Shown: positions 9,169 to 59,489 of the stretch, one piece after another | Numbering within the stretch: position 1 is the stretch's first letter | How the letters are laid out: each line of letters opens with the position of its first letter | Origin: Vulcanimicrobiota bacterium | Lineage (GTDB): Bacteria; Vulcanimicrobiota; Vulcanimicrobiia; Eremiobacterales; Eremiobacteraceae | Length of the DNA stretch: 64,000 nt | NCBI GenBank assembly: GCA_963812135.1 | Contig: CAWETU010000001.1 | Span: 1,696,001-1,760,000, forward strand | Direction: 5' to 3' | The notes under the pieces: model-generated | What the model saw: the letters and a program-made list of their open reading frames with translations, nothing else | Databases searched by the model: none | Told to the model about the DNA's origin: nothing | Position numbers and translations under genes: made by a program

Positions 9169-9188
9169 CGGTCGAGTAAACTCGACCG

Positions 9189-9193
<5 letters not shown>
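9169..9193 (-). repeat. REP-like palindrome overlapping the rpoC stop codon
   Basis: Minus strand TGTAG-CGGTCGAG-TTTA-CTCGACCG. Confidence 0.75.
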
Positions 9194-25425: not shown

Positions 25426-25710
25426 GTGGATTCCAAACGAGTTCTCGTCGGCAAGTCGGTGACCGTGCGGTCGCTCGACGTCGAGCCCAAGTATTTCACC
25501 GACGTGCATCGCGCACGCATCGGGCAGACCGGACGCGTGCACGCGGTCGTCGCCGGCGATCGCGACGATCCGCTTATCAAGGTCGGGTTCGAAGAGGGGA
25601 CGCAGATCGTTTTCTATCGACTCGCCGACCTAAGCGTCGATCACGACGCCGAGCCGGAGACGCCGAAACGTCACGGCCTCCGGGCGAGCCACCTACCGAA
25701 ACTGGGCTGA
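25426..25710 (+). CDS. Small hypothetical protein, possibly SH3/KOW-like
   Basis: GAGGTG RBS before GTG 25426; IGQTGRVHAV..LIKVGF..IVFY beta pattern. Confidence 0.55.
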   Translation: MDSKRVLVGKSVTVRSLDVEPKYFTDVHRARIGQTGRVHAVVAGDRDDPLIKVGFEEGTQIVFYRLADLSVDHDAEPETPKRHGLRASHLPKLG

Positions 25711-26559
25711 GAGCCACTCCAAGCCTTCAACCACGCGCGGCCCGTTGCGCTCGATGATCGAGTCGTTTGGCGGCTGAAACACGCGCCCACGTTGCACTGC
25801 GCGCAGGCTGCGCCACGGTTCGCGCGCACGCACGTCCGAACCGAACGGCGTATCCTTCGAGACGATGATGACATCCGGATCGGCGCGCAGGATCGCTTCG
25901 GCGCTCAGGTCGGGATACGGCTGGTCTACATCGCCTGCGATGTTCTCGCCGCCCGCGAGCGTGATCAGATCGTTGATGTACGACGACTTTCCAACGGTGA
26001 ATCCGGGCAATCCGAGCAAGAAAAGGACGCGCGGCCGATGCGCGGTGGTCAGCGGGCGCGCCACGATGCGCTTGAGGCGTTGCCGGATTTGCGCCGCGAG
26101 CGCCTTGCCTTGCGGTGCGCGGTCGCATGCTTTCGCGACACCGGCGATGTCCGCGTAGAGATCGTCGAGATTGCGATTGGGCAGATAGGTCACCGGAATG
26201 CCAAGACGGGCCTGGATCGGCCCGCCCTCGTGCTCCTGATCGTGCACGGCGATGGCAACACTCGGATGCAACTGTGCGATGCGCTCGAGATCTGCATGCG
26301 TAAGGTCAGCGACGTGCGGCAGATCTTTGGCAGTCGGCGGATAGTCGTCATACGTGGTGTCGGCCACCAGCGAATCGCCGCAACCGATCGCGAACGCGAT
26401 CTCCGTGAGCGACGGGGCGAGCGAGATGATGCGCGGCCCGTGGGTCGCCGGCTCTAGTGTAGCGGTCGAATTTATTCGACCGTGCGCGCAGCCCGCCAGC
26501 AGGCTCAGGCTTCCCACGAGCGCTGATAGCATGCGCAATGCCTTGCGCGTCTGCGTCAT
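25693..26559 (-). CDS. btuF: Cobalamin ABC transporter substrate-binding lipoprotein
   Basis: LAGC lipobox, RIISLAPSLTEI, LAGGENI, ADPDVII, RNGPR; riboswitch operon. Confidence 0.85.
   Translation of the reverse strand: MTQTRKALRMLSALVGSLSLLAGCAHGRINSTATLEPATHGPRIISLAPSLTEIAFAIGCGDSLVADTTYDDYPPTAKDLPHVADLTHADLERIAQLHPSVAIAVHDQEHEGGPIQARLGIPVTYLPNRNLDDLYADIAGVAKACDRAPQGKALAAQIRQRLKRIVARPLTTAHRPRVLFLLGLPGFTVGKSSYINDLITLAGGENIAGDVDQPYPDLSAEAILRADPDVIIVSKDTPFGSDVRAREPWRSLRAVQRGRVFQPPNDSIIERNGPRVVEGLEWLSAQFR
26458..26482 (+). repeat. REP-like palindrome inside btuF
   Basis: TGTAG-CGGTCGAA-TTTA-TTCGACCG, read as GRINSTAT on the minus strand. Confidence 0.75.
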
Positions 26560-52370: not shown

Positions 52371-53207
52371 ATGAAACAACACGATCCTCAAGTGCGTCGG
52401 CGTCCGCAGTGGTCCCTGCGAACGCTCTTTTTCTGCGTCGCCGGTCTTGTCGCATTCGCATTGCCCGTCAGCGCGGACGATGCGGTGCCGATCGCGCTGC
52501 ATCTAACGCCCGGCCGCTACGTACGCACGCAAAAACTCGTGCACCTCATCACATTTGACATGACCAAGTCCCTCAAGGCGATGGCCGGGGGCCGGGCAGA
52601 CGATCAGACCATCCTCGAAGACCGCGACCAAGTGATGATCGTCAAGGCCGGCAACGCGATCAACATCTCGGAGACGAACACGCGGCATTACGGCGGCGAT
52701 CATCCGAAAGGGAGCGACAGCAAGGTCCGGACGTCGACGTACGACGGCACGATCGCGCCCAACGGCGTGCTCACGCCGCCGCAAGCGGTGCTCGAAGACG
52801 CTGGCGACGGCGCGCTGGACCAACTGCCGGATATCCCGCTTGCCCCCGGCCAGTCATGGACCTTTTCACGACACGTGAAGGCCGAACGCGAATTGGGTGA
52901 CGGTCCGATGACCTATCTCGACAAAGTCCAAAAAATCGAGGATCGGAACGGCCATCGCATCGCGATCATCAGCGTGACCGGCAACGGAACCATGACACCA
53001 GCCAAAGATCTGCAAGAGCACGGCTTCAAGAACGCGCCGATGGATCTCTCGGGGACCGCCGAGTTCGATACGACCACCGGGCTGCCTGGCGTGCAGCACT
53101 ACACCGCCAAGGTGCGTTGGGGCACGGTCGTGATGTTCGCGCACATCGGCGTCGTCCTCACTGATACCTACGATGCGACCCCGGTCGAGCCCAAACCGCA
53201 GAGTTGA
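52371..53207 (+). CDS. Hypothetical exported beta-rich protein (start uncertain)
   Basis: Signal peptide; LPDIPLAPGQSW, GTAEFD..TG. Confidence 0.7.
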   Translation: MKQHDPQVRRRPQWSLRTLFFCVAGLVAFALPVSADDAVPIALHLTPGRYVRTQKLVHLITFDMTKSLKAMAGGRADDQTILEDRDQVMIVKAGNAINISETNTRHYGGDHPKGSDSKVRTSTYDGTIAPNGVLTPPQAVLEDAGDGALDQLPDIPLAPGQSWTFSRHVKAERELGDGPMTYLDKVQKIEDRNGHRIAIISVTGNGTMTPAKDLQEHGFKNAPMDLSGTAEFDTTTGLPGVQHYTAKVRWGTVVMFAHIGVVLTDTYDATPVEPKPQS

Positions 53208-54016
53208 GCCCGCCCCGTAAGCGCGCAGCACCAACGCCGTTGGAGGCCGCGGTGCTCGAGGGACTTGACGCCGCCGGATTACGCGAGCGCGCCGCGGCAG
53301 TCGTCATCGATCTGCGGACCGGCGCGACCGGCGCGTGGCGGGCCGACGAGGACATCTATCCCGCGAGCATCATCAAGCTGGCACTGATGGTCGAAGCGTC
53401 ACGGCGCTTCGACGACGGTTCGGTTGCACCCGATGCGCGCATCGCCGTCACGCGGAACAATCTCACGCCGACATCTGAAGCGACGCCGTTGATCGAAGGC
53501 TATAGCGCGCGGGTCGCCGAGCTCGTGGAGTTGATGATCGAACGCTCGGACAACATCGCGACGAATCAGCTCATCGATCTGCTGGAACGCACGCGCGTCG
53601 ACGATGCGATGCGCGCCTTGGGGCTTGCCCATTTCCATCTGGGGCGCAAACTTTCAGGTGCCGAGCCGCTGGTCGACGATCCCGAATCGGGCGAGCGCAA
53701 TTCGATGCCGCCGGCAGACGCGGCGAGACTGCTCGGCCTCATCGCGAACGGCGCCGTGCCACGCGCGGCGCAACAACGTGAATTGCTCGCGCGCTGCGTC
53801 GATCGCACCAAGCTCGCAGACGGTTTGCAGCCTGGCGATCGCTTCATGCACAAGACCGGCGAAACGAGTGCGGTAGCTCACGATGCGGGGATCCTGCGAA
53901 CCGCTCGCGGCCAAGAGTATGTAGTCGTTCTCTACACGACGGGGCACCGGTCCGTGCTGGGCGGTCCTCATGCCGCAATGGCGGCGTGGATGCGTTCCGT
54001 GCGAGCCCACCTCTGA
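53204..54016 (+). CDS. Serine hydrolase, class A beta-lactamase-like
   Basis: SIIK (SxxK), SDN, HKTG, HDAG. Confidence 0.85.
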   Translation: MSPPRKRAAPTPLEAAVLEGLDAAGLRERAAAVVIDLRTGATGAWRADEDIYPASIIKLALMVEASRRFDDGSVAPDARIAVTRNNLTPTSEATPLIEGYSARVAELVELMIERSDNIATNQLIDLLERTRVDDAMRALGLAHFHLGRKLSGAEPLVDDPESGERNSMPPADAARLLGLIANGAVPRAAQQRELLARCVDRTKLADGLQPGDRFMHKTGETSAVAHDAGILRTARGQEYVVVLYTTGHRSVLGGPHAAMAAWMRSVRAHL

Positions 54017-54081
54017 CGGCCCATCCGCCGAACGTCGCACGCATGCCAGGGTCGGAATAGGCGGAGGCGAACACAGGATTT

Positions 54082-57000
54082 GTGCCTGATACGCGCGTCG
54101 TCGTCACACTGCCGGAAATGGGTGAGTCGGTAACCGAAGGCACCGTCACAGCCTGGCGTAAGCGCGTCGGCGATACGGTCGAAAACGGCGAGGCGCTCGT
54201 CGACGTCACCACCGATAAGGTCGACGTCGAGGTCCCCGCGCCGGCTGCCGGTAAAGTCGTCAAGATCCTCGCGGACGAAGGCGCGACCATCAAGGTCGGC
54301 GGCCCGCTCGCCGAGATCGAGACCTCGGGCGACGGGGTCAAGAGCACCTCCGCCCCCACAAAACGTGCCGAGCCGGTCGAGCAAAATCGGCCGCAACAAC
54401 CACCTGCAGCGTCGGTCGAACAAGTTCGACCGCTACAGACTTCCGTCGACGCATCGCCATTGGCGTTGCGCGCGGCGGCGCTGCGCAACGTCGAGCTCAA
54501 CGGCATCAAGGGCAGCGGTCCAGGCGGAATCGTGCGCCGCTCGGATGTGCTCGGCGATGGCGCCGTGCGAACGATCGAGCAAGCTCGACCGCTACCAACG
54601 CCTGCCGTGACGGTCGACCAAGCTCCACCGCTACAACCGCCTGCGTCGCCGGTCGAGCAAGCTCGACCGCTACAGCCCAGCGCACCCTTACCGCCTGGCG
54701 CGACGCCGCTCAAAGGCCCGGCTGCTGCGCTCGTCAACTATATGGAAGAGAGCCTGTCGATCCCGACCGCGACCAGCTTCCGCACGATCGCCGTCGACAC
54801 GCTCGAGGTGCGGCGCCGCGACCTTAATAACGCTTTGCGCACCGCCGGCCGCGCAGAAAAGGTCTCGTTCACCCACCTCATCGGTTTTGCGCTGGCGCTC
54901 GCGACGCATCAAGTGCCGGTGATGACTGCAGCGTTCCGGCGCGAGGGCGACCAGGCTGTCCGCGTTGATCAGCCGTGCAATCTCGGCCTGGCCGTCGACA
55001 TGCAGCGCAAGGACGGCAGTCGTTTTCTTATCGTGCCCGTCATCCGCGACGCAGACAAGCTCGATTTCGCGACCTTCCATCGGACGTACGAAGCGCTCGT
55101 CGCCAAGGCGCGCGCCGGCGCACTGACGCCTGGCGATCTCACGGGCGCGAGCATGACCCTCACCAATCCGGGCGGCATCGGCACCGTCGCGTCGGTGCCG
55201 CGCCTGATGCCCGGGCAAGGCTCGATCATCGCGACCGGCGCCATCGGCTATCCGCCGGGGCTCGCATCGGTGCCGGAATCATCCCTGCGCGCGATGGGCG
55301 TCGCCAAAGTCATGACGCTGACGAGCACCTACGATCACCGCATCATCCAAGGCGCGCAATCGGGCGAATTCTTGCGGCGCGTCGAAGAGCTGCTCAACGG
55401 CGCCGACGGTTTTTACGACGCGCTGTTCGCGAGCCTGGGTCTTCCCAAACCCGCCGAGGTGTCGCGCATCGAGACGCGCGCGCCCGGCACGCAAGCGCCG
55501 GCTCCCGCGAGCCCGGAGCTCTTGCGCGCCGCGACCGCCGGCGCGTCGCTTGTCGCGCGCTATCGCAATTACGGGCACACCGCGGCGACGCTCGATCCGC
55601 TCGGCGAGCCGCCGGCGGGCGATCCTGCGCTGGATCCCGCGAGTTTAGGGCTGACGCTGCCGTTGATGGAGTCGGTGCCCTCGTCGCTGCTTCGCATTCA
55701 TCTGCCGGGGAGCACTCTCGCCGAAGTGCTGCCGCGTCTGCGCGACACGTATTGCGGCACGATCGCGTATCAGATGGAACACATCTCGAGCCACGCGGAG
55801 CGCGGCTGGCTGCGCGAACAGATCGAATCGGGCGTGCATCGGCGTCCGCTGTCACGCGAGGAGGCCTTGCGGCTGCTCGATGCGCTCACCAGCGTCGAAG
55901 TGTTCGAACGCTATTTGCGCAGGTCGTTTATCGGCCAGAAGACGTTTTCGATCGAAGGGCTCGACGCCATGATCCCGATGCTCGAGGTCATGCTCGATCA
56001 GCTCGCGGCAGACGGCGTCAGCGAAGTCGATATCGGCATGGCGCACCGCGGCCGGCTGGCCGTCATCACGCACGTCGTCGGCAAACCGTTTGAGGAGGCG
56101 CTGCGCGAATTCGAAGTGGCCGAAAAGCGCGGCGACACCGATCTGCCGGGCGACGTCACCGGCGACGTCAAATATCACCAGGGCGCCGCGGGCGTGCGCC
56201 AGTCGCCGGCTGGCAAGAACATCCGCGTGGTCCTCGCATCCAATCCGAGTCATCTCGAAGCGGTCGACGCGGTCGTCGAAGGCAACACGCGCGCGGCCCA
56301 GACCGATCGCTCGCGCAACATCGCGGCGCAGGACGTGCAAAAGGCCGCCGCGTTGCTGATCCACGGCGACGCGGCGTTTCCCGCGCAAGGCGTGGTCGCC
56401 GAAGTCCTCAACATGCAGCTGCTGCCAGGCTACACGACGGGCGGCACGATCCACGTCATCGCCAACAATCAGATCGGCTTCACTACGACGCCGGGCGAAG
56501 GACGCTCCACGCGCTACGCGAGCGATCTTGCCAAGGGCTTCGATATCCCCATCATCCACGTGAACGCGGACGACGTCGAAGCGTGCATCGCCGCGGTGAG
56601 CCTGTCAGTCGCGTTCCGCAAGCAGTTCAAGCGCGACATCCTCATCGACCTCGTGGGTTACCGGCGCTTCGGCCACAACGAGACCGACGAGCCGGCGTAC
56701 ACGCAGCCGATCATGTACGAGCGCATCAAGAACCATCCGACGGTGCGCGAGATCTATGCGCGACGGCTCGTCGAGCGCGGCCTCATCTCCGAGGACGACG
56801 TGAAGACATTGCTCGACAACGCGCAGCGCCGCATCGCGGGCGCGCACGCGGCGGTCAAGGGCGGCAGCGGCGAACCCAAAGCGCCGGCACCGGAGACCGG
56901 CAAGAACGGCGCGACCGACAATGCGATGGTCGACACGCGCGTGCCGGCCGACCAACTGCGCAAGCTGAACGAAGAGCTCGTCGCCGTGCCTGCCGGATTC

Positions 57001-58122
57001 GTCGTACATCCGAAGCTGACCCGACAGCTCGAGCGGCGGCGCGGCGCGCTTGGCGCCGGCGGCACGATCGACTGGGCGCTGGGCGAGGCCTTCGCGTTCG
57101 GCACGTTGCTCATTGCGGCGACCCCGGTCCGTCTCACCGGCCAAGACACAGAGCGCGGCACCTTCAGCCACCGGCACCTTGTCCTGCACGATCCGAAAAC
57201 CGGAGACAGCTACGCCCCGCTGCAACACCTGTCCGGCGCACGTGCATCGTTTGAGATCTATAACAGCCCATTGTCCGAATACGCCTGTGTCGGCTTCGAG
57301 TACGGCTACAGCGCCCACGCGCCCGAGGCGCTCGTCCTGTGGGAAGCGCAATTCGGCGACTTCTTCAACGGCGCGCAGATCATCATGGACCAGTTCATCT
57401 CGGCTGGCCAAGCCAAATGGGGCGAATCGCCGCGCCTCACGTTGCTGCTGCCGCACGGCTACGAAGGCGCGGGTCCAGAACATTCGAGCGCGCGGCTGGA
57501 GCGCTTCTTGCAGCTTGCCGGCGATAACAACCTGCGCATCGCAAATCTGACGACGCCGGCGCAGTACTTCCATCTTCTGCGCGATCAGGCGATGCGCCCC
57601 AAACCGCGCCCGCTCGTCATCATGACGCCGAAGAGCTTGCTGCGCCTTGCCGCCGCCAGCTCGACGGCCGCCGATCTGACCGAGCGCGGTTTTATGCCGG
57701 TCATCGACGACGCGACCGCGCGCGACCGCAAGAAGATCGAGCGCCTCATCCTCTGCAGCGGCAAGATCTACTACGACCTGACGATGGACCCGCTGCGCCA
57801 GGCGGCCACGGATCTGGCGATCGTGCGCGTCGAACTGCTCGAGCCCTTCCCGCTCGACGAAGTGCTGCAGCTCGTCAAATCGTATCCCTCGCTCAAGACC
57901 GTCGCCTGGGTCCAAGAGGAGCCGAAGAACATGGGCGCGCGCGCCTTCGTTTCGCGGCGTCTGCGCGAGCGGCTCACGCCGATGAACATCGCGTTCGGCT
58001 ACGTCGGCCGGCCCGACCGCGCCAGTCCGAGCGAAGGCTATCCCGGCCCGCATGCGGTCGAGCAGGAACGCATCGTGCGTGCTGCGCTTTCCCAGCCGAT
58101 CTATAAGGAGACGCCGCAGTGA
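54082..58122 (+). CDS. kgd: Multifunctional 2-oxoglutarate dehydrogenase: lipoyl, E3-binding, E2 succinyltransferase and E1 domains
   Basis: TDKVDVEV, GSGPGGIV, YDHRIIQGAQSG, GMAHRGRL, HGDAAF, WEAQFGDF, PEHSSARLERF. Confidence 0.93.
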   Translation: MPDTRVVVTLPEMGESVTEGTVTAWRKRVGDTVENGEALVDVTTDKVDVEVPAPAAGKVVKILADEGATIKVGGPLAEIETSGDGVKSTSAPTKRAEPVEQNRPQQPPAASVEQVRPLQTSVDASPLALRAAALRNVELNGIKGSGPGGIVRRSDVLGDGAVRTIEQARPLPTPAVTVDQAPPLQPPASPVEQARPLQPSAPLPPGATPLKGPAAALVNYMEESLSIPTATSFRTIAVDTLEVRRRDLNNALRTAGRAEKVSFTHLIGFALALATHQVPVMTAAFRREGDQAVRVDQPCNLGLAVDMQRKDGSRFLIVPVIRDADKLDFATFHRTYEALVAKARAGALTPGDLTGASMTLTNPGGIGTVASVPRLMPGQGSIIATGAIGYPPGLASVPESSLRAMGVAKVMTLTSTYDHRIIQGAQSGEFLRRVEELLNGADGFYDALFASLGLPKPAEVSRIETRAPGTQAPAPASPELLRAATAGASLVARYRNYGHTAATLDPLGEPPAGDPALDPASLGLTLPLMESVPSSLLRIHLPGSTLAEVLPRLRDTYCGTIAYQMEHISSHAERGWLREQIESGVHRRPLSREEALRLLDALTSVEVFERYLRRSFIGQKTFSIEGLDAMIPMLEVMLDQLAADGVSEVDIGMAHRGRLAVITHVVGKPFEEALREFEVAEKRGDTDLPGDVTGDVKYHQGAAGVRQSPAGKNIRVVLASNPSHLEAVDAVVEGNTRAAQTDRSRNIAAQDVQKAAALLIHGDAAFPAQGVVAEVLNMQLLPGYTTGGTIHVIANNQIGFTTTPGEGRSTRYASDLAKGFDIPIIHVNADDVEACIAAVSLSVAFRKQFKRDILIDLVGYRRFGHNETDEPAYTQPIMYERIKNHPTVREIYARRLVERGLISEDDVKTLLDNAQRRIAGAHAAVKGGSGEPKAPAPETGKNGATDNAMVDTRVPADQLRKLNEELVAVPAGFVVHPKLTRQLERRRGALGAGGTIDWALGEAFAFGTLLIAATPVRLTGQDTERGTFSHRHLVLHDPKTGDSYAPLQHLSGARASFEIYNSPLSEYACVGFEYGYSAHAPEALVLWEAQFGDFFNGAQIIMDQFISAGQAKWGESPRLTLLLPHGYEGAGPEHSSARLERFLQLAGDNNLRIANLTTPAQYFHLLRDQAMRPKPRPLVIMTPKSLLRLAAASSTAADLTERGFMPVIDDATARDRKKIERLILCSGKIYYDLTMDPLRQAATDLAIVRVELLEPFPLDEVLQLVKSYPSLKTVAWVQEEPKNMGARAFVSRRLRERLTPMNIAFGYVGRPDRASPSEGYPGPHAVEQERIVRAALSQPIYKETPQ
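54374..54674 (-). repeat. Five REP-like palindromes in frame within kgd (2 + 3 copies, 39-nt period)
   Basis: Plus-strand consensus CGGTCGAG-CAAG-CTCGACCG-CTACA at 54374, 54413, 54572, 54611, 54650. Confidence 0.8.
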
Positions 58123-59489
58123 GCGCGCGCGTCGTCGTGCTGGGCGGCGGACCTGCCGGCGATGTCGCCGCGCTGCGCGCCGCGCAGCTCGGCGCGCAAG
58201 TGACGCTCGTCGAACGCGCCCAACTAGGCGGCACGTGCCTGAATTGGGGCTGCATCCCGACCAAGGCGCTGCTCGCCAGCGCCGACCTGCTGCGCAAAGT
58301 ACGCCGTGCCGCCGACTTCGGCATCGAAGTGTCCGAGCCGAAGATCAATTTCGCGAAGATGATGTCGCGTAAAGAGGACATCGTCGTCAAGCAGCGTTCG
58401 GGAGTCGAGGCCGCGTGCAAGCGCAAGAAGGTCGAGGTCGTGCACGGCCAAGGCGCGCTGGCATCGGAAGCCGTCGTCGTCAATGGAACGCGCTATCCGT
58501 ACGATTTCTTGATCGTCGGCGTCGGCACGGAGCCCGCCGGGCTGCCGGTGCTCGAGATGGACCAGCCCGCCGTCATCACGTCCAACGGCGTGTTGCGGCT
58601 CGAGACGGTGCCCAAACGCATGCTGATCATCGGCGGCGGCGTCGTCGGTTGCGAGTTCGCCAGCCTGTTCGCGGCGCTCGGCACCGAGATCACGATCGTC
58701 GAGATCTTGCCGCGCATCCTGACCGGCATCGACGCGCGCACCGCCGGGCAGTTCCAGAAGATGATCGAGAAGGACGGCGTGCGCGTGCTCACCGGCCAAC
58801 GCGTCAAGGAGATCTTGCAGTACCGACGCGACGGCCTAGTCGCGCAGATCGATGACGGCTCGAAGTTCGACGTCGACAAGCTGCTCGTCTCGGTCGGACG
58901 CGTGCCGCAGACGCGCGACATCGGATTGGAAGGCGCGGGCGTGAAGATCGACGCGCGTGGCCACATCGAGACCGACGAGTACCTGCGCACCGCCAACCCG
59001 AAGATCTACGCGATCGGCGATTGCCGTGGCGGACTGCAGTTGGCGCACAAAGCGTCGGCGGAAGGCGCGCGGGCCGTCGAAAATGCGCTCGACCACCATC
59101 CGATGCCGATGGATTGGAGCGTGATTCCAAGCTGCATCTACACGCACCCGGAGATCGCGTCGGTCGGTCTGAACGCCGACGTGGCAAAGGAAGCCGGCCG
59201 TGAGGTCAAGCTCGGAACGGCGCGCGTCATCGGCAACGGCAAGGCCCTGGGTGAGGGCGAGCCCGACGGCTACGTCCAGATCATCACCGACGCGAAGACC
59301 GATCGCATCCTGGGCGCCACGCTGATCGGCATCCATGCGGTCGAGCTGATCCACGAGATCGCGGTCGCGATGTCGGACGCGTTGACCATGGACGAGCTCG
59401 GCGCGGTCATCCACGCACACCCGACGGTCAGCGAATTGGTCATGGACGCCGCGCAACAAGGCGAGGGCGTCGCCCCATACCTCTCGTAG
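58119..59489 (+). CDS. lpdA: Dihydrolipoyl dehydrogenase (E3)
   Basis: GGGPAG, GGTCLNWGCIPTK, GGGVVGCE, HPTVSE. Confidence 0.96.
   Translation: MSARVVVLGGGPAGDVAALRAAQLGAQVTLVERAQLGGTCLNWGCIPTKALLASADLLRKVRRAADFGIEVSEPKINFAKMMSRKEDIVVKQRSGVEAACKRKKVEVVHGQGALASEAVVVNGTRYPYDFLIVGVGTEPAGLPVLEMDQPAVITSNGVLRLETVPKRMLIIGGGVVGCEFASLFAALGTEITIVEILPRILTGIDARTAGQFQKMIEKDGVRVLTGQRVKEILQYRRDGLVAQIDDGSKFDVDKLLVSVGRVPQTRDIGLEGAGVKIDARGHIETDEYLRTANPKIYAIGDCRGGLQLAHKASAEGARAVENALDHHPMPMDWSVIPSCIYTHPEIASVGLNADVAKEAGREVKLGTARVIGNGKALGEGEPDGYVQIITDAKTDRILGATLIGIHAVELIHEIAVAMSDALTMDELGAVIHAHPTVSELVMDAAQQGEGVAPYLS

Follow-up and report, generated by a model that had tools for sequence, protein, structure and literature searches.

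GTAG-type REP hairpins in frame within the interdomain linkers of a fused 2-oxoglutarate dehydrogenase (Kgd) from a Vulcanimicrobiota bacterium

Introduction

Intragenic copies of REPs (repetitive extragenic palindromes) with a GTAG tag, including copies whose tag supplies a stop codon, were catalogued by Di Nocera, De Gregorio and Rocco in 2013 (PMC3733652). Among the hosts named in the parts of that work considered here are, in Opitutus terrae, the E2 component of 2-oxoglutarate dehydrogenase Oter_4191 (amino acids (aa) 190-204) and the dihydrolipoamide acetyltransferase Oter_4192 (both in supplementary file 3), a phosphoribosylformylglycinamidine synthase and a subunit of an NADH-ubiquinone oxidoreductase, and neutrality in flexible linkers was already suggested by the same authors. 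The class to which the present case belongs, that is, GTAG REPs in flexible protein parts including the E2 of 2-oxoacid dehydrogenases, is therefore a known one. Here we describe five copies of a REP unit that lie in frame within the fused 2-oxoglutarate dehydrogenase Kgd of a Vulcanimicrobiota bacterium, encoded in a stretch of 64,000 nucleotides (nt; contig CAWETU010000001.1, positions 1,696,001 to 1,760,000), hereafter the window. What this case adds is a comparison: one and the same linker or loop has been filled repeatedly, in differing frames and orientations and by different REP families, with a stop-codon filter, which would constitute a natural test of mobile hairpins supplying near-neutral protein sequence.

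Like the GTAG REPs of the 2013 catalogue, the family described here has a GTAG tag followed by a hairpin, its tag often acts as a TAG stop, and in-frame copies are found in housekeeping proteins. It differs from them, as they appear in the consulted parts of PMC3733652, in its sequence and lineage, in occurring mostly as singlets or same-direction tandems instead of inverted dimers, and in having placed five copies in a single fused Kgd, whose orthologues have been recolonised in other frames and by other families. PMC6006769 also describes the GT[AG]G tag and REPs inserted in frame, and group 3 REPs are reported as perfect palindromes in PMC8266576. As in the REPtrons of TnpA_REP group 3 from Stenotrophomonas and Marinomonas (the same two sources, again in part), a short perfect stem directly follows the GT[AG]G tag, and the genes for REP-associated tyrosine transposases (RAYTs) in relatives of our genome are mostly flanked by inverted REP arrays; in contrast to a REPtron, no cognate RAYT was found in the source genome itself. 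The palindromic elements of Rickettsia (RPEs), which an earlier sequence-only reading of the window had named as the precedent, are one in part, since their palindromic repeats are also translated in frame within functional proteins; the O. terrae E2 copies stand closer, and RPE-4 and RPE-6 have a CGTC tag and no dedicated transposase, unlike the 24-nt GTAG/GGAG unit found here (PMC3733652, in the parts consulted). Finally, the REPINs of Pseudomonas (Bertels and Rainey 2011, PMC3116915) are comparable as RAYT-linked REPs among which tandem arrays also occur, and differ in that, according to the consulted part of that paper, 61% form inverted doublets, against 3 of 22 close pairs here.

In the freely accessible literature searched, no paper was found on REPs in Eremiobacter, the name Vulcanimicrobi did not occur in the papers listed, and a topic search on intragenic REPs in the linkers of dihydrolipoamide enzymes gave no paper using 'intragenic REP'. 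We consider it probable that the units are RAYT-type GTAG REPs whose RAYT has since been lost or escaped assembly, which are tolerated in genes, and which in Kgd go back to one amplified founder that now serves as a near-neutral tether and is corrected at the level of the hairpin.

Five REP copies in the linkers of Kgd

The source genome (2.79 Mb in 6 contigs, 98% complete) is labelled G000; its contigs C1 and C5 overlap and form one stretch of about 2.73 Mb, which is not closed. Other G labels denote genomes (G011 belongs to another genus), L labels loci and P labels Kgd homologues; the main claims are independent of the unpublished genomes G010, G013 and G016. The five REP units of kgd are 24 nt long, antisense to the open reading frame (ORF) and in frame with it, and they are read as aa 98-118 and aa 164-197, that is, within both interdomain linkers. 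The features concerned are the following.

54082..58122, plus strand: kgd, 1346 aa, fused lipoyl, E3-binding, E2 acyltransferase and E1 2-oxoglutarate dehydrogenase (Pfam; NCBIfam NF008907, 1442.6 bits, cut-off 878)
54100..54318, plus strand: lipoyl domain, aa 7-79 (Pfam PF00364)
54319..54450, plus strand: linker 1, aa 80-123, with REP copies 1 and 2 (between Pfam matches; variable across 30 aligned orthologue loci)
54374..54397, minus strand: REP copy 1, decayed, 2 mismatches to GTAGCGGTCGA-N6-TCGACCG, tag GTTG; coding strand PVEQNRPQQ
54413..54436, minus strand: REP copy 2, perfect hairpin, 0 mismatches; coding strand SVEQVRPLQ
54451..54552, plus strand: E3-binding domain, aa 124-157 (Pfam PF02817)
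54553..54702, plus strand: linker 2, aa 158-207, with REP copies 3-5 at a 39-nt period (between Pfam matches; orthologue alignment)
54572..54595, minus strand: REP copy 3, one stem mismatch, G instead of T before GTAG; coding strand TIEQARPLP
54611..54634, minus strand: REP copy 4, decayed, 1 mismatch; coding strand TVDQAPPLQ
54650..54673, minus strand: REP copy 5, perfect hairpin, 0 mismatches; coding strand PVEQARPLQ
54703..55398, plus strand: E2 acyltransferase catalytic domain, aa 208-439 (Pfam PF00198)

All five minus-strand units lie where the sequence-only reading had placed them, and the period of 39 nt that it gave holds inside each linker, with 159 nt separating copy 2 from copy 3. 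The leading TGTAG that it ascribed to the unit does not hold for copies 1 and 3, and the peptide VEQxRPLQ is exact in copies 2 and 5, with VEQNRPQQ, IEQARPLP and VDQAPPLQ in copies 1, 3 and 4. Copies 2 and 5 are indeed perfect and one compensated base pair apart, and they have the strongest DNA folds (-8.5 and -8.8 kcal/mol, against -3.0, -5.4 and -3.3 for copies 1, 3 and 4). An AlphaFold model of Kgd from the single sequence, with a mean pLDDT of 37, was not used.

Searched at up to 3 mismatches, the window gives 10 matches, made up of 7 distinct sites and 3 opposite-strand rows of the palindrome, where 0.22 would be expected; none of 100 shuffles of the window reached this number. The two sites outside kgd, at the rpoC stop and in a btuF-like gene, had both been announced by the sequence-only reading and are real. 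Rfam gave 0 matches at E≤1 across positions 54000-55000.

9169..9192, minus strand: REP copy whose GTAG tag provides the TAG stop of rpoC (identified by TIGR02386)
26459..26482, plus strand: REP copy antisense in a gene for a BtuF-like periplasmic binding protein (25693-26559, minus strand), read as HGRINSTAT, aa 26-34; the protein scores 119 with the BtuF NCBIfam model, below its cut-off of 234

A genome-wide family of GTAG-type REPs

The proposed scan of the whole genome, with the self-matches of the palindrome taken out, returned 104, 59 and 30 copies at 0, 1 and 2 mismatches, respectively, i.e., 193 copies, as against none at up to 2 mismatches in three triplet shuffles. The unit comprises a tag, GTAG or GGAG, and a stem of 8-9 base pairs (bp), and the 9-bp stem is perfect in 124 of 190 copies; the insert of RPE-1 is longer than these 24 nt. 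The positional classes, scored for the 190 copies on C1 and C5, are approximate, as genes were called with a self-trained dicodon model, which gave 2672 of them and 87.5% coding sequence: 97 copies are intergenic, 41 lie across a gene end and 52 fall within 41 ORFs, with 28 of the latter in mid-protein positions spread over 20 genes. In all 24 sense overlaps with a stop codon, the tag provides the TAG. Most copies are singlets, and only 3 of the 22 neighbouring pairs no more than 200 nt apart are inverted.

Exact copies with a GDAG tag number 117-149 in four of seven genomes of the genus and 5, 1 and 0 in the remaining three, and 25 further genomes of the family hold at most two copies each. 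The same REP is present in a GTDB record of Candidatus Eremiobacteraeota, and the commonest 24-mer had 0 matches in IMG/VR. With its tag and palindrome, its high and dispersed copy number, its enrichment at gene ends and outside genes, and its narrow range, the unit belongs to the GTAG-type REPs.

Entry into tolerant coding regions in frame, also put forward by the earlier reading, is borne out by 53 of the 193 copies lying in called ORFs and by inserts relative to orthologues in five proteins. Twenty host ORFs, picked for their mid-protein copies, were scanned against Pfam and 18 had matches, among them a pseudouridine synthase, a pyruvate dehydrogenase (PDH)-type E2, SelB, an electron transfer flavoprotein, NuoC and PurL, together with a FabH-type protein, CarB, ValRS, CysRS and a penicillin-binding protein.

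Some further observations concern the repeats of this genome. A second GTAG-tagged family, with the stem CCCGAGC, has 34 copies (for example at C1:1944447, 966158 and 1768875), 18 of them in ORFs and mostly read as V-x-PERSSG; among 32 genomes it was found only in G000 and G001, and some of its sites are sites of the first family in G005. Three further REPs with a period of 39 nt form an array at G000:C1:2159925-2160026, intergenic according to the gene caller. Contigs C3 and C4 are 97% and 91% identical duplicates of C1:1928625-1949365, probably strain variants, and C4 is without the REP of C1:1933265 and without about 440 nt near 1942780-1943220. Runs of eight C on C1 and C5 are all but confined to the plus strand (70, with 1 on the minus strand), and may stem from one or a few homopolymer tracts.

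Reading frames and tandem amplification

Four open frames hold 45 of the 52 intragenic copies on C1 and C5. The sense frame that contains TAG is used by two copies, both tagged GGAG, and the antisense VEQ frame by five, every one of them in Kgd. This last frame carries a stop codon in 156 of the 185 copies outside Kgd and in none of the five within it, and a CAA codon in all five Kgd copies as against 7 of the 185 others. Since the five Kgd copies are not independent, the loss of the stop counts as one event and not as five. A comparable constraint is visible in the tandem pairs on the same strand: where both members lie in ORFs, all periods are divisible by 3, whereas several of the periods of pairs with an intergenic member are not (26, 31, 35 and 46). 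The frame filter is thus visible as a pattern, and purifying selection would be its cause.

The 14-nt spacers between the Kgd copies had been described as variable. Those after copies 1, 3 and 4 are in fact related, with 9-11 of 14 nt in common (in a null drawn from the linkers of relatives, P(≥9)=0.03 and P(≥10)=0.009), while the variability stands for those after copies 2 and 5, which correspond to unrelated flank. This likeness suggests that a 39-nt unit was duplicated in tandem and copied between the linkers, and the five Kgd copies are better read as one stop-free founder, amplified in tandem, than as five insertions.

Kgd linkers and other host proteins among relatives

An alignment of Kgd orthologues, proposed by the sequence-only reading, showed that the VEQ peptide is absent from the REP-poor relatives of the genus, G002-G004. 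Its claim that REPs generate new linker sequence was not supported: linkers 1 and 2 are 43 and 52 aa long in the source genome, as against 51-56 and 44-70 aa in G002-G004, so the REP replaces linker sequence and neither creates nor lengthens it. The Kgd of L143, which comes from a metagenome relative, has a single copy in linker 1 and, in linker 2, three copies that are all perfect, and that of P0010, whose N-terminus is missing, has two in linker 2. Between the source genome and L143, copies 3 and 5 of linker 2 differ by a compensated pair (GAG..GCT versus GAA..GTT) that links a silent Glu change to an exchange of Val and Ala. Such compensated changes in the stem imply that the DNA hairpin is corrected and not the peptide.

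The Kgd of G001 contains two copies and a decayed one, and its linker 2 also holds a second REP family. In G005 and G006, linker 2 contains the same REP in a different frame, read as DGR[IM]NSTAP, and linker 1 of G011 contains two copies of the RAYT-flanking REP of that genome, where this REP numbers 193 copies. The Kgd linkers have thus been colonised repeatedly, by the same REP in another frame or by other REP families. In a Kgd tree that includes 16 of 30 orthologue loci, two REP-rich genomes are basal in the genus, and the REP is therefore probably ancestral there and decayed in G002-G004. As side observations, the G001 kgd (L007, G001:C6:278414-282545) has a frameshift just past linker 2 and the G001 purL match (L097) ends early, both possibly through long-read errors; SAGLQ and GRPLxSR, short peptide repeats of a different kind in the linkers of the homologues P0013 and P0019, resemble translated members of further REP families; and the fusion of a lipoyl and E3-binding N-terminus to E2-E1 is a common layout among relatives and homologues, some of which have two lipoyl domains.

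Could these hairpins have been kept for a function at the nucleic-acid level, such as ribosome pausing, mRNA processing or a DNA-binding site, or could the VEQxRPL peptide have gained a role in the enzyme? It is true that G000 and the earliest-branching G001 each have a VEQ-frame copy at the same linker-2 end, the G001 24-mer being identical to copy 2 of G000, and the linker-2 copies of L143 are perfect in three cases out of three. However, three of the five Kgd copies have decayed in G000, copy number, frame and REP family vary among relatives, G002-G004 manage without the REP, and a peptide of this type is present in the linker region of only 5 of the best 120 of 551 Kgd homologues, so that we regard a selected function as quite improbable.

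Outside Kgd, REP inserts are seen against orthologues of the genus in ValRS, NuoC, FabH, PurL and the PDH-type E2. The ValRS of the source genome has a net insert of about 7 aa; the REP in G005 has the opposite orientation to that in G000 and G001, and there is none in G002 and G003. In NuoC, FabH, PurL and the PDH-type E2, the REP sits in loops that are of similar length in orthologues without it. Both linkers of the PDH-type E2 (L059 = G000:C1:115963-117276; L102) contain sequence derived from REPs, in G000 as well as in G006, and linker 1 of its G001 counterpart has a copy resembling the RAYT-flanking REP of G001. To judge from these alignments, the copies in Kgd, ValRS, NuoC, FabH, PurL and the PDH-type E2 are codogenic REPs, in frame and absent from orthologues. 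Over 800 kb of G005, mapped onto G000 by interpolation with a few loose rows, 77 of 86 REP copies could be mapped and 29 fall at a REP site of G000, 4 rows being inverted.

RAYT genes in relatives

Matches to the Pfam family Y1_Tnp were found in 16 of 41 genomes of relatives, most of them flanked by inverted arrays of tag-and-hairpin repeats. These RAYTs are about 150-190 aa long and have an HUH motif and a Y-x-x-x-NP motif, and the two proteins tested both passed the RAYT model NF047646. The REP beside them is two bases longer than that of the source genome at L033, L035, L039, L048 and L051, and a variant of the same length occurs at L038. RAYT genes occupy different sites in different relatives, which suggests that they come and go, and the site of the G001 REPtron is a clean gene-gene junction in the source genome. 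The RAYT gene flanked by the repeat that the sequence-only reading had proposed to look for was not found in G000, nor was a cognate REPtron, and the link to RAYTs runs through the closely related REPs that lie beside RAYT genes in relatives. In its sequence features, the REP is that of a RAYT-linked family, and it appears to behave alike.

Strand polarity on one replication arm

Between 0.97 and 2.37 Mb of the source genome (C1:970000-2370000, which includes the window), the tag strand is the minus strand at 92 of 99 REP sites, as against 36 of 72 elsewhere, with clusters collapsed. These boundaries were set after viewing the data; the best half-genome contrast was not attained in any of 2000 label shuffles. 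The second GTAG family has 16 of 17 copies on the minus strand within 1.4-2.2 Mb, and the syntenic stretch of G005 has the same polarity at 36 of 37 sites, mostly different ones. In G011, hand counts give 54 of 56 sites in the same sense on four contigs of the matching arm, and 27:16 in the opposite sense on three contigs of the other arm; contigs C13-C20, with incomplete or unmapped rows, were omitted, as was C3 (3:4), the contig that runs across dnaA. In three genomes and for three REP families, the polarity covers a complete replication arm, and nothing on such a one-arm orientation was found in the literature searched. Together with the missing RAYT, it bears on how REPs spread in vivo.

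With the origin placed at dnaA (0.31 Mb) and the terminus at 1.5 Mb, the ratio of plus to minus strand is 21:91 on arm 2 and 22:37 on arm 1; the GC skew of G000 is too weak to locate either point. Under this placement of the origin, the tag strand on the polar arm is the lagging-strand template, as described for IS200/IS605 in the consulted part of PMC3971601. A simple leading/lagging cause was rejected, as it fits one arm only and the polarity of G000 passes the presumed terminus. Gene direction was likewise discarded, minus-strand REPs being found with both gene directions, and the differing positions of RAYT genes in the relatives led us to drop the idea of a polarity radiating from one fixed RAYT locus.

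Proposed origin of the Kgd copies

The linkers of 2-oxoacid dehydrogenase E2 proteins are flexible, and changes in their length and sequence are tolerated. We propose that a RAYT (TnpA_REP) acting on single-stranded hairpins spread the GTAG REP through the genus, and that this RAYT was most likely later lost from the G000 lineage or not assembled. Spacers, stop codons and genes would all receive copies, and purifying selection would retain intragenic ones only where the frame is open and the protein tolerant. The founder in Kgd would have had a rare loop, with CAA (Gln) in place of the usual stop, and would have entered a pre-existing Ala/Pro-rich linker. Spacer likeness and the variation in copy number suggest that it then multiplied through tandem duplication of a 39-nt unit and through copying from linker to linker, displacing older linker sequence, and the domain architecture of E2 suggests that the resulting peptide is an ordinary flexible tether, close to neutral. 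Correction of the stems may proceed through template switching, through conversion between copies or through rewriting.

Several observations weigh against this proposal. No credible RAYT was found in the 98% complete G000 with Pfam PF01797, a hidden Markov model (HMM) of a 17-sequence clade, tblastn or the G001 RAYT as query (the best tblastn match, with an E of 3e-4, lies within another called gene and has no HMM match), and none was detected in G005 and G006, which have 141 and 149 REP copies and whose assemblies are not closed. The sole RAYT of the genus, that of G001, has a different REP on its flanks, and a scan of GTDB for inverted pairs of the REP 480-540 nt apart gave one locus, with no RAYT between them. 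Fourfold-degenerate sites differ by 0.30-0.48 between members of the genus while the REP copies stay near-perfect, which a long-lost RAYT explains poorly. No target-site duplication, by which a remnant of a MITE (a miniature transposable element with inverted repeats) or insertion sequence would be recognised, is seen, the flanking direct repeats at 160 copies being equal to the null of shuffled flanks; this absence fits HUH chemistry, yet it leaves no positive mark of insertion. Finally, of at least 21 sequencing runs with matching words, one had more than half of them; no contig from the four runs examined bridges the kgd repeats, and the RNA run gave only short pieces of relatives.

That none of the short-read contigs examined spans these repeats would also suit an ordinary linker repeat born by slippage, or an assembly artefact, that is REP-like by resemblance only. 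Ala/Pro-rich linkers often bear repeats, and linker 1 of L143 has an unrelated 15-nt repeat; nevertheless, the Kgd unit is a member of a family of about 190 copies, mostly extragenic or at gene ends, and the independent assemblies L143, P0010 and G001 carry the REP in Kgd. This explanation is, in our judgement, highly improbable.

The missing RAYT may instead be taken at face value. The REP would then still be spreading or being rewritten through a host mechanism, or one that goes unrecognised, tied to replication and acting on single strands, with the intragenic copies kept in step. Three genomes that are 97-98% complete have 117-149 exact copies and no detected RAYT; only 29 of the 77 mapped sites of G005 are shared with G000; among the shared rows of the same orientation, 14 of 25 have GGAG in G005 versus GTAG in G000, each being the majority tag of its genome; the 91% identical duplicate contig C4 has no copy at the site of C1:1933265; and the one-strand bias between 0.97 and 2.37 Mb points the same way. 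On the other hand, RAYT loci vary among relatives, the assemblies are gapped (including the unclosed C1 and C5) and an assembly can break at the REP arrays surrounding a RAYT, and G011 has an intact RAYT together with the same one-arm polarity, which therefore needs no new enzyme. We consider unlikely, then, a RAYT-less and strand-specific spread and self-rewriting of the REP, also inside essential enzymes, that orients copies across half the chromosome, and give preference to the RAYT-driven origin. If the RAYT-less process were true, the turnover of DNA hairpins, and not selection on the protein, would determine the peptides that form the linkers in Kgd and in other core enzymes.

Neighbouring genes

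Directly upstream of kgd lies an ORF of the class A beta-lactamase family (PF13354), at 53204-54016, and directly after it lies a gene for an E3-type pyridine nucleotide-disulphide oxidoreductase, at 58119-59489.

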